64,000 nt of DNA from Escherichia coli (GTDB taxonomy: Bacteria > Pseudomonadota > Gammaproteobacteria > Enterobacterales > Enterobacteriaceae), in NCBI RefSeq assembly GCF_024223415.1, contig NZ_CP100503.1; one strand, given 5' to 3'. The translations under genes and the position numbers were made by a program. Every line of letters begins with the position of its first letter. Position 1 is the first letter of the stretch. Shown in pieces: positions 56,574-57,189 of the stretch. The notes under the pieces are model-generated. The model saw only the letters and a list, made by a program, of their open reading frames with translations. It did no database searches and was not told the origin of the DNA.

Positions 56574-56906
56574 TTAGTTACCGCTGATAGCGCGGTTGTA
56601 ATCATTAACGTTGCGATTCTTCCTGTTAATCCCCTTCAGCATCGTTTCTGTATCAAGGATATAGGCTGGCAGATCATCAAAATATTCACTGCTAAATTCT
56701 GGCATCCTGCACATAAATGCACTTTTGGGGGCAGGGTGGTTAACCTTTGTCGGCGTCGGCGTTAAATTCGCTGATCGACTCCCGGAGCAACCGCTGAGTG
56801 TCAGCAGGAATACGCTGGCGAACATTACCCGCCGCAACCAGTTGTTTCTGAACTTCAGCTTTTCGTTCCATTTGCCTGTCAGCATACTTGGCTTGTTCTG
56901 ATTCAT
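56574..56906 (-). CDS. Lipoprotein, o-spanin (Rz1)-like / mlp-like (start likely internal MFASVFLLTLSGC)
   Basis: Lipobox LSGC followed by Pro-rich segment; 5' part overlaps the 3' end of 56740..57189 in another frame. Confidence 0.5.
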   Translation of the reverse strand: MNQNKPSMLTGKWNEKLKFRNNWLRRVMFASVFLLTLSGCSGSRSANLTPTPTKVNHPAPKSAFMCRMPEFSSEYFDDLPAYILDTETMLKGINRKNRNVNDYNRAISGN

Positions 56907-57189
56907 TTTTCACTTCCTGGCTGTGAAAATGTTGCTCTGCTTTGTTCATCGTCTCAATGGCCTGGTTAAGATCCATTATTGACTTATCACGTTCCTTAAC
57001 AGCCTGATCAAGACTGCCAATTTTCTCCATGGCTTGCTTTAGCTGATGACGTTCCCATGCAAACCCAGCACCAACAAGTGCGCAAATCAGAACAAGAACA
57101 CCAGTAGCAGCAAGTTTCTCCTTCAAAGACAAAGCTGTTTTTAACGTAGAAAAGAATGACATGTCTTCCTCCTGAAGAAAAATTATCAA
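56740..57189 (-). CDS. i-spanin (Rz)-like protein: N-terminal TM helix plus coiled coil (149 aa)
   Basis: TM segment ATGVLVLICALVGAGFAW then charged helical region; overlapped by lipoprotein gene. Confidence 0.45.
   Translation of the reverse strand: MIIFLQEEDMSFFSTLKTALSLKEKLAATGVLVLICALVGAGFAWERHQLKQAMEKIGSLDQAVKERDKSIMDLNQAIETMNKAEQHFHSQEVKNESEQAKYADRQMERKAEVQKQLVAAGNVRQRIPADTQRLLRESISEFNADADKG

Follow-up and report, generated by a model that had tools for sequence, protein, structure and literature searches.

What does a pair of overlapping genes, one encoding a membrane-anchored helical protein and the other a lipoprotein, represent when it lies beside a plasmid replicon and apart from any holin or endolysin gene? 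The pair in question was found in a 64-kb stretch of DNA (the window, by which we mean the whole stretch analysed), and an earlier note, made from the sequence alone, had read it as an Rz/Rz1 arrangement of i-spanin and o-spanin. Our computational assignment is that these genes very likely encode the two-component spanin of phage P1, specified by ppfA and mlp of a P1-like phage-plasmid and having the "overlapped" architecture.

The ppfA-mlp pair and its host element

The window is a P1-like phage-plasmid. Nucleotide identity, measured over 2.4 kb, is 94-98.5% to P1, P7, SJ46, RCS47, and 733 enterobacterial plasmids, and the gene order also matches. The pair and its surroundings are as follows.

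57999..58283, minus strand: upfC, upstream, PAAR-like (P1 annotation, PAAR motif matches)
57202..58047, minus strand: upfB, upstream and codirectional (P1 annotation)
56740..57162, minus strand: ppfA, i-spanin candidate, 140 aa (ORF, P1 identity, phrog_89, hydropathy, AlphaFold2)
56574..56906, minus strand: mlp, o-spanin candidate, 110-aa lipoprotein precursor (ORF with ATG start, P1 identity, PHROGs, pN/pS)
56170..56562, minus strand: upfA, between mlp and oriR, outside the spanin pair (ORF, P1 annotation)
55912..56036, no strand assigned: origin iterons TCGCGTATAGTCAA at 21-bp spacing (analogy with the P1 oriR/incC annotation)
54952..55893, minus strand: repA, beside the iterons

PpfA is 98-99% identical in amino acid sequence to P1 PpfA (gp064), with 2 residues differing, and Mlp is 99% identical to P1 Mlp (gp063), with 1 residue differing. 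These near-identical proteins, together with an equal genomic position between upfB and upfA/oriR, mark the genes as orthologues of P1 ppfA and mlp; the overlap, the Shine-Dalgarno sequences, and the synteny upfC-upfB-ppfA-mlp-upfA-oriR-repA are all as in P1. Among more divergent relatives the upstream upfC-upfB synteny is kept, and upfA is replaced by other genes. The iterons and repA place the pair next to a plasmid replicon, as the earlier note had stated, and this replicon is of an alternative RepFIB-like type, not P1 repA/incA.

The putative spanin pair of P1 is already known: it was predicted in 2007 (Summer et al. 2007, as reported by the sources that cite it), catalogued in 2018, and annotated in RefSeq. 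Table S1 of Kongari et al. (2018) lists gp064 as an overlapped i-spanin and gp063 as an overlapped o-spanin, and Bednarek et al. (2022), citing Summer et al. (2007), name ppfA and mlp as the spanin genes of P1 and note their separation from its remaining lysis genes. In the databases, the RefSeq P1 record names ppfA and describes mlp as "Rz-like spanin", and the pair in MH422554 is annotated as Rz and Rz1. Furthermore, a published survey placed ppfA and mlp among 21 extremely conserved genes across 77 P1-like phage-plasmids. What is new here is the conservation of the overlap signals, the pN/pS of mlp, the affinity to P2-type PHROGs, and the mapping of a 33.6-kb deletion. The discovery value is small; an overlapped spanin was recognised correctly from sequence features alone.

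The two proteins and the start of mlp

The longest ppfA ORF (56740-57189) begins with TTG and encodes the 149 aa originally proposed. The ORF is present and its size needs correcting, since the supported start, which is also the one used for P1 gp064, is the ATG at 57162, giving 140 aa. Each gene has its own ribosome binding site.

57168..57173, minus strand: ppfA Shine-Dalgarno AGGAGG, 5 nt upstream of the ATG at 57162
56913..56918, minus strand: mlp Shine-Dalgarno AGGAAG, inside the ppfA codons Q-E-V

The ppfA ATG and Shine-Dalgarno sequence are kept in all four of the divergent relatives compared, and Kongari et al. (2018) record an identical Shine-Dalgarno sequence for gp064. PpfA has one hydrophobic segment (residues 17-35, nt 57058-57114; Kyte-Doolittle 19-residue mean of 2.35), in agreement with the single N-terminal transmembrane helix claimed previously and with the transmembrane domain (TMD) recorded for gp064 by Kongari et al. 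(2018). Lys8, Lys14, and Lys16 precede this segment, consistent with an N-in type II topology. AlphaFold2 (pLDDT 72) predicts a helix at residues 13-110, a break at 111-119 (AAGNVRQRIP), and a second helix at 120-137. The body that the earlier note called a coiled coil is modelled as helix-break-helix; heptad periodicity is just moderate in a crude scan, and the predicted helices do not imply an oligomeric coiled coil. PpfA has no Cys outside the TMD and matches phrog_89 ("Rz-like spanin") over its full length (E 2.6e-25).

Mlp carries the expected LSGC lipobox (nt 56787-56798), with a predicted lipidated Cys40 followed by Ser at +2. Sorting to the outer membrane is expected because this residue is Ser and not Asp. 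The lipobox Cys is invariant in the relatives, in which the lipobox variants LSAC, LNAC, and LNGC occur. A second Cys, Cys66 (nt 56709-56711; mature position 27), is also invariant and supplies the periplasmic Cys of which spanins have at least one in either subunit, for a homotypic disulfide; the disulfide rule of Kongari et al. (2018), a periplasmic Cys in the spanin, fits this single Cys of Mlp. The mature protein is 71 aa long, and the Pro-rich character ascribed to it is modest only: Pro accounts for 4 of mature residues 1-21 and for 6 (8.5%) of the full 71. Mlp matches two PHROGs, phrog_30284 (E 9e-78) and phrog_456 (E 8.9e-6), both described as "Rz-like spanin".

The Mlp signal peptide, at 39 aa, has a long basic n-region. 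Selection on this n-region was considered and dropped, as Glu/Lys/Gln-rich codons of ppfA can by themselves produce such a pattern in the other frame. Kongari et al. (2018) report LipoP cleavage at residue 39 of gp063, judged the signal "too long", and proposed another start. Mlp may accordingly be made, alone or as one of two forms, from an internal start at codon 24 (TTG in P1 and the window), which would yield a canonical 16-17-residue signal (M-R-R-V-M-F-A-S-V-F-L-L-T-L-S-G / C). In each of the four divergent relatives an ATG, codon 23, aligns with it, and the first residue of P2 LysC falls exactly there too. The upstream ATG, however, has a conserved, near-perfect, and correctly spaced Shine-Dalgarno sequence (AGGAGG in all four relatives, AGGAAG here) to which nothing before codon 24 compares, and it is preserved in the relatives although the overlying PpfA residues differ (NE, DE, ND). 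We therefore regard the internal start as possible, if doubtful. It would alter the precursor only, with mature Mlp and its function unaffected.

Missing lysis genes and the role of the pair

Spanin genes usually, though not obligatorily, lie in or beside a holin-endolysin cassette, and no such location is seen in the window. tblastn searches with the holins and endolysins of P1, lambda, and P2 returned no matches in the 64 kb, and no homologue of Lyz or LydA-E was found there, in line with the earlier note's statement that the pair lies away from any holin or endolysin. Unlike P1, the window is without lyz/lydD/lydE, the lydA/lydB/lydC loci, and most tail genes, and the block in question is missing at a mobile element.

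40012..41759, plus strand: IS200/IS605 element (tnpA and tnpB), site of the missing P1 block

The P1 gene order has a gap of 33.6 kb at this element; the lost block includes lyz, lydA-E, and genes for the portal, tail fibre, baseplate, and tail tube. This IS-associated deletion accounts for the absence of lyz, the lyd genes, and most of the tail genes from the window. Separation of the spanin genes from holin and endolysin genes is thus native to P1 and has been made absolute here, within the window, by the deletion. The darB-IS-ant junction had no occurrence in PLSDB or in complete E. coli genomes. Since spanins alone are inactive while the peptidoglycan is intact, the intact pair carried by this plasmid is most probably an inactive relic. 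The window is an example of a defective P1-like plasmid that keeps its candidate spanin and, within the 64 kb, has neither the endolysin nor the holins that go with it.

For the pair as it would act in a complete phage, we infer complex formation, membrane fusion, and the timing of expression, and propose a mechanism by analogy with lambda Rz/Rz1. The N-terminal helix of PpfA would insert in the inner membrane, with the helical domain of about 100 residues projecting into the periplasm. Mlp would be exported, lipidated on Cys40, cleaved by signal peptidase II, and carried to the outer membrane by Lol. The two proteins would then join via their periplasmic ends into a bridge that passes through the peptidoglycan layer, and Mlp probably forms homodimers by a disulfide at its one invariant periplasmic Cys. 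After degradation of the peptidoglycan by Lyz, collapse of the complex would fuse the inner and outer membranes, as the last step of lysis.

Comparison with six annotated P1 late promoters pointed to a candidate promoter ahead of upfC.

58316..58334, minus strand: candidate promoter upstream of upfC, consisting of AAGTAACCT, 4 nt, and TAAAAT (inference from motif comparison)

This motif resembles the late-promoter layout of P1 (-22 box plus -10) and is also flagged as sigma-70-like. The late-promoter-like motif is degenerate; P1 itself and the relatives have a weaker -22 box, and the P1 annotation gives no late promoter for the upfC-upfA operon. The P1vir transcriptome paper (PMC8201110), consulted for expression timing, does not name ppfA or mlp.

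PpfA and Mlp could instead be a periplasm-spanning pair with a nonlytic role, for which the resemblance to spanins would be topological only. They might act with UpfB and the PAAR-like UpfC when virions are assembled or DNA is injected, or serve superinfection exclusion or another envelope function of the plasmid prophage. The genes do form part of the upfC-upfB-ppfA-mlp-upfA string beside oriR, outside any lysis cassette, and sigma-70 promoters predicted for ppfA within upfB in the P1 annotation would permit expression in the lysogen. When the P1 genome was screened by CRISPRi, moreover, plaque formation survived knock-down of either gene: ppfA gave EOP values of 1.3/1.2 and mlp 0.24/0.19, both scored as nonessential, and in the same study lyz was essential (0.05/0.0035), as was lambda Rz. 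CRISPRi knock-down may be incomplete. Nonessentiality in plaque assays is nevertheless expected for a spanin, because the defects of spanin mutants are typically conditional (Bednarek et al. 2022). Also weighing against a nonlytic role are the detectable homology of Mlp to P2 LysC, the full-length membership of PpfA in the PHROG of P2 LysB, a +1 overlapped geometry equal to that of lysB/lysC, and the conservation of all spanin hallmarks (type II TMD, helical domain with a break, outer membrane lipobox, and periplasmic Cys). On balance, we consider a purely nonlytic role unlikely.

Besides the CRISPRi scores, points that sit against the spanin assignment are the unusually long signal of 39 aa, the presence of a PAAR-like virion gene, rather than a lysis cassette, as neighbour, and, as detailed below, the lack of significant pairwise or hhalign similarity of PpfA to P2 LysB or lambda Rz and the weak NCBIfam and absent Pfam matches. 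A further reading keeps the P1-type spanin and gives it an added or different function in the envelope, for instance in the lysogen or at the time of injection, or has dual starts timing the appearance of functional o-spanin. It draws on the 39-residue signal, conserved in length, with its 23-residue basic extension, the possible internal start, the co-oriented PAAR-like neighbour, the mild effect of knock-down, and the survival of the pair without other lysis genes; we think it very improbable. Given its unlinked location and the length of its signal peptide, the predicted P1 spanin is a reasonable case for complementation.

Dual coding and comparison with the P2 and lambda spanins

The reported overlap of the 3' end of ppfA by a lipoprotein gene in another frame is clearly present.

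56740..56906, minus strand: dual-coding overlap of 167 nt, with mlp in the +1 frame of ppfA

The overlap encodes the C-terminal 55 residues of PpfA and, in mlp, the signal peptide, the lipobox, and the first 16 mature residues. mlp continues 166 nt beyond the ppfA stop codon, which makes the layout overlapped and not embedded, overlapped being one of three arrangements of adjacent spanin genes alongside embedded and separated. The four relatives, with PpfA proteins of 59-64% identity, all retain the +1 ORF together with its ATG, its Shine-Dalgarno sequence, and both Cys residues, the one in the lipobox and the second one; at about 65% identity, Mlp has a conserved ORF length and 54 of its 110 residues are invariant. 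In the 54 mlp codons past the ppfA stop, pN/pS is 0.13-0.19, compared with 1.3-2.2 in the other two frames, which contain stops, and a 2- to 3-fold third-position bias is confined to the mlp frame. Within the overlap, dN/dS is 0.14-0.19 in the ppfA frame and above 1 in the mlp frame. Both frames conserve the lipobox region. Purifying selection acts on both frames.

Because the unique part of mlp shows such a low pN/pS, we conclude that mlp is translated, and its translation appears to be driven by its own Shine-Dalgarno sequence and ATG inside ppfA. The earlier note had named a lipoprotein that is not translated as one of two outcomes that would overturn its reading; the conserved signals and a pN/pS of about 0.15 are clean evidence for translation of a gene that gene callers still miss or truncate. 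That only ppfA is genuine and the lipoprotein ORF an untranslated chance frame is effectively refuted: gene callers omit mlp or call just a 46- to 52-aa ORF (in relatives and MH422554), the mlp-frame dN/dS exceeds 1 in the overlap, and the basic n-region may be a shadow of ppfA codons, but the constraint on the unique codons, the conserved ORF features, and the homology between Mlp and P2 LysC leave it next to no probability.

In P2, whose LysB/LysC is the prototype of the overlapped class, the o-spanin gene lysC likewise starts within the i-spanin gene lysB in the +1 frame and then runs past it, with an overlap of 146 nt compared with 167 nt for ppfA/mlp. LysB and PpfA share phrog_89 (E 5.8e-61 and 2.6e-25, respectively). 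LysC matches phrog_456 with E 1.7e-31, compared with 8.9e-6 for Mlp, and reciprocally matches phrog_30284 of Mlp. Mlp residues 24-90 align directly with LysC (BLASTP, 37% identity over 68 residues, E 1e-7; hhalign probability 83%), and a C-x-M-P motif is common to both. Between PpfA and LysB, BLASTP and hhalign gave no signal, and the shared PHROG is the sole link. The NCBIfam LysB and LysC models score far below their cut-offs (TIGR03495, 18.4 versus 92.75 bits; NF038368, 15.2 versus 27), and a Pfam search matched neither PpfA nor Mlp to any family. The pair therefore appears to be a remote homologue of P2 LysB/LysC and not an equivalog. It differs from the P2 genes, which lie within a lysis cassette after Y, K, and lysA, in being unlinked, and the Mlp precursor differs from LysC in its extra 23-residue N-terminal extension.

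Lambda Rz/Rz1, the prototype spanin and one characterised by experiment, also combines a type II inner membrane protein having a helical periplasmic domain with a small outer membrane lipoprotein in the +1 frame, the periplasmic Cys is similarly spaced from the lipid anchor (mature position 27 in Mlp, C29 in Rz1), and an equal mechanism is expected. Rz1, however, is fully embedded in Rz, the lambda proteins belong to PHROGs 13 and 3198 rather than 89 and 30284/456, Rz has two periplasmic Cys residues whereas PpfA has none, and Rz/Rz1 end the S-R-Rz cassette. Rz1 is a 60-aa precursor with a visibly Pro-rich mature part, in contrast to the larger and Pro-poorer mature Mlp. Mature Rz1 is usually quoted as about 40 aa with 25% Pro. 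Membership in the lambda Rz/Rz1 families was rejected (no significant similarity, with BLASTP E 0.22 and 0.005 and hhalign probability 1.8%, other PHROGs, other architecture, and no Pfam match). The earlier proposal of an Rz/Rz1 arrangement thus stands as regards an i-spanin/o-spanin pair, in agreement with the published assignment and the PHROGs, and gives way as regards the layout: architecture and sequence affinity both point to the overlapped P2 LysB/LysC type and not to the embedded lambda Rz/Rz1 type.

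The ppfA/mlp gene pair

Two overlapping open reading frames are present on the minus strand at 56574-57189:

56740-57162, minus strand: ppfA, i-spanin candidate, 140 aa
56574-56906, minus strand: mlp, o-spanin candidate, 110-aa lipoprotein precursor

The pair is the already known, predicted overlapped spanin of phage P1, and the spanin interpretation of the earlier note is therefore right and not new. The surrounding 2.4 kb are 94 to 98.5% identical to P1, P7, SJ46, RCS47, and other Punavirus records and match 733 plasmids, mostly from E. coli. In P1 (NC_005856), where the genes lie between upfB and upfA and directly adjoin oriR and repA, ppfA is gp064 ("possible periplasmic function") and mlp is gp063 ("membrane lipoprotein precursor," product "Rz-like spanin"). 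Kongari et al. 2018 (PMC6139136) list P1 in Table S1 as an "ovl" (overlapped) two-component spanin, with gp064 as i-spanin (140 aa, 104 periplasmic, no periplasmic Cys) and gp063 as o-spanin (110 aa, 71 mature, one periplasmic Cys); the 39-aa signal of gp063 (LipoP cleavage at residue 39) is marked "too long signal sequence," and the P7 entry is identical. Bednarek et al. 2022 likewise present the two as the P1 spanin genes, set apart from the other lysis genes, but in their sentence the i- and o- labels are swapped; the lipoprotein is mlp. In a survey of 77 P1-like phage-plasmids, mlp and ppfA were among 21 extremely conserved genes.

The ppfA frame extends upstream to a TTG at 57189, from which the earlier note had counted 149 aa. 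The supported start is the ATG at 57162, giving 140 aa (MSFFSTLK...): it lies 5 bases 3' of an SD sequence, AGGAGG (57168-57173), is kept together with that sequence in divergent relatives, and is where P1 gp064 is annotated to begin. As had been noted, the protein has one N-terminal transmembrane segment, strongly hydrophobic (residues 17 to 35) and preceded by three Lys, a topology compatible with a type II (N-in) membrane protein. An AlphaFold2 model (16 homologues, pLDDT 72) predicts a continuous helix at 13 to 110, a break at 111 to 119 (AAGNVRQRIP), and a second helix at 120 to 137.

mlp begins with an ATG within ppfA, in the +1 frame behind the SD sequence AGGAAG, shares 167 nt with ppfA, and continues 166 nt past the ppfA stop. 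Its lipobox (...FLLTLSG/C) places the predicted lipidated residue at Cys40, with Ser at +2, which bears out the claim of a lipoprotein gene overlapping the 3' end of ppfA in another frame with an LSGC lipobox. The Pro enrichment claimed after the Cys exists, but it is modest (4 Pro among the first 21 of 71 mature residues, 6 in total). The mature protein has one more Cys, at position 27.

The long basic n-region of the Mlp precursor is unusual. The position at which P2 LysC begins in the alignment is TTG (codon 24) in P1 and the window and ATG in the relatives, and initiation there would yield a textbook signal peptide of 16 to 17 residues. An internal or dual start is a tenable, if rather unlikely, alternative; the conserved SD sequence favors the upstream ATG. 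The basic extension can be a by-product of +1 reading of Glu/Lys/Gln-rich ppfA codons, and so we draw no functional conclusion from its composition.

Replicon, deletion, and cargo of the plasmid

The earlier note had placed the pair next to the plasmid replicon, and two replicon features do adjoin it:

55912-56036: iterons, 21-bp spacing
54952-55893: repA, Rep3-type

Between parA and the incA-like iterons lies a 269-aa open reading frame with a T5orf172 domain (53850-54659, minus strand), unannotated in P1; a T5orf172 gene adjoins rep in a Cronobacter relative too.

The pair is also, as claimed, away from any holin or endolysin: tblastn found no match in the window for P1 Lyz, LydA-E, portal, Tub, Sit, S, or Ssb, for lambda S and R, or for P2 Y, K, and LysA. 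This isolation arises because the P1 lysis genes are natively scattered (lyz-lydD-lydE at ~20 kb, lydA-lydB-lydC at ~31 kb, and ppfA-mlp at ~63.5 kb) and the two other loci are lost here. Aligned with a complete P1-like genome of 97 kb, the window lacks a 33.6-kb block that reaches from the remainder of darB to sim and includes prt, pro, lyz/lydD/lydE, ssb, the darA operon with lydA/B/C, cin, tail fibres, baseplate, sit, and tub. The break (40012-41759) is occupied by the middle one of three IS200/IS605-family copies, each with tnpA and a 410-aa TnpB/InsQ:

27406-29095, minus strand: IS200/IS605 copy
40069-41716, plus strand: IS200/IS605 copy, marking the large deletion
62349-63996, plus strand: IS200/IS605 copy, truncating dmt at ~62291

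The window otherwise spans nearly the whole P1 circle, with only ~6 kb of the reference between its ends, so that the plasmid probably represents a defective derivative of P1. No record in PLSDB or among complete E. coli genomes matched the darB-IS junction. Neither spanin gene is frameshifted; both are intact and differ from P1 by 1 to 2 aa. Spanins are held to be harmless so long as the peptidoglycan is intact, and the intactness of the genes fits this view as well as a recent deletion.

The dmt DNA methyltransferase gene (59631-62333, plus strand) carries a 1,020-bp insertion (59865-60884), absent from the reference P1-like genome, that encodes an intein with Hint_2 and LAGLIDADG_3 homing-endonuclease domains, placed within the C5-cytosine methylase catalytic motif (GGTP/C...VVHN/CQAFS). 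Also absent from the reference is a 6.2-kb block (10686-16890) with minus-strand open reading frames of 1,038, 412, and 520 aa; its counterpart in phage vB_EcoM-673R5 is annotated as HsdR and restriction subunit S, and the block is therefore probably type I restriction-modification cargo. Besides the regular immI-type anti-repressor (Ant/KilAC) module there are several diverged copies (80 to 88% nucleotide identity), an unusual multiplication of immunity-region genes:

22689-23804, plus strand: Ant/KilAC module copy
29786-30850, minus strand: Ant/KilAC module copy
33305-34417, plus strand: Ant/KilAC module copy
41753-43800, plus strand: Ant/KilAC module copy

Predicted role in lysis

By analogy with lambda Rz/Rz1, PpfA would dimerize in the inner membrane and Mlp, held by its lipid anchor, in the outer membrane; the two kinds of dimer would join by their periplasmic ends, bridging the murein meshwork. 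Once the SAR endolysin Lyz degraded the murein, the complexes would be free to move and collapse, fusing the two membranes and releasing virions. Complex formation, membrane fusion, and timing are thus predictions from the lambda system; what the sequence contributes are the localisation signals, the modelled helix-break-helix domain, and, in Mlp, one conserved periplasmic Cys.

upfC, upfB, ppfA, and mlp follow one another in a single orientation. A motif 5' of upfC, AAGTAACCT-4 nt-TAAAAT (58316-58334, minus strand), is laid out like the annotated P1 late promoters. The -22 box of this motif is degenerate, still more so in P1, whose annotation has no late promoter at this site; late expression of upfC-upfB-ppfA-mlp is therefore plausible. 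upfC (57999-58283, minus strand) is PAAR-like, scoring 26.5 bits against Pfam PAAR_motif, just below the cutoff of 27, and matching an NCBIfam type VI secretion PAAR domain model as well.

A CRISPRi screen of P1 scored ppfA (EOP, 1.3/1.2) and mlp (0.24/0.19) as nonessential and lyz as essential, and lambda Rz was essential in the same study. These scores count against the spanin explanation and would suit a non-lytic envelope role of the pair. However, spanin phenotypes are conditional and CRISPRi knockdown may be partial, and we therefore regard such a role as improbable; the spanin explanation remains very likely.

Conservation and kinship of the pair

The comparison drew on four P1-like plasmids with PpfA 59 to 64% identical, found in Cronobacter, Klebsiella aerogenes, and Salmonella. 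In all four, the +1 mlp frame is open and its ATG is equally placed behind a perfect AGGAGG, even though the PpfA residues over it have changed (NE, DE, ND). No variation is seen in the lipobox Cys (lipobox variants LSAC, LNAC, and LNGC, the last among the deviating o-spanin lipoboxes noted by Kongari et al. 2018 [PMC6139136]), in the second Cys, or in 54 of the 110 residues overall. Over the 54 codons 3' of the ppfA stop, pN/pS in the mlp frame is 0.13 to 0.19, with differences mostly at third positions (e.g., 9/7/28); in the two remaining frames, which contain stop codons, the ratio is 1.3 to 2.2. Where the two genes overlap, constraint is stronger on the ppfA frame (dN/dS, 0.14 to 0.19), except around the lipobox, where both frames are conserved. 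Translation of the lipoprotein, one of the two points on which the earlier note had staked its proposal, is supported as far as sequence analysis reaches, and an untranslated mlp is extremely improbable.

In P1-like genomes, automatic annotation frequently picks up no more of mlp than a C-terminal fragment of 46 to 52 aa (1576-1716 in the P1 record MH422554 [L002]; ~3431-3589 in L004, L006, and L007, records of relatives). Such fragments begin at Met65, without the lipobox, and sometimes carry the label "Rz1." These calls are a systematic misannotation of an overlapped o-spanin. In MH422554, where the pair is labelled Rz and Rz1, the "Rz1" is such a truncated product of 46 aa.

The arrangement had been likened to Rz/Rz1. 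It is a predicted i-/o-spanin pair, as in the published assignment, but overlapped in the manner of P2 LysB/LysC and not embedded. Kinship with lambda Rz/Rz1 was rejected on this layout, on the assignment of Rz and Rz1 to PHROGs other than those of PpfA and Mlp, and on the lack of significant similarity between PpfA and Rz. The Cys at mature position 27 of Mlp is comparable in position to lambda Rz1 C29, which is functionally important there. PpfA matches phrog_89 ("Rz-like spanin") over its full length (E = 2.6e-25), and Mlp matches phrog_30284 (9e-78) and phrog_456 (8.9e-6); P2 LysB is a member of phrog_89 (5.8e-61), and P2 LysC is a member of phrog_456 (1.7e-31) that also matches phrog_30284. 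Pfam gave no match to PpfA or Mlp, the NCBIfam LysB/LysC models scored both products only far below cutoff, and PpfA showed no significant similarity to LysB, pairwise or by profile, the same being true for Rz. Mlp is 37% identical to P2 LysC over residues 24 to 90 (E = 1e-7; 83% probability by profile comparison), with a C-x-M-P motif in both. On this evidence ppfA/mlp appears to be distantly related to P2 lysB/lysC, in which lysC likewise begins in the +1 frame within lysB, overlaps it by 146 nt, and runs past its end.
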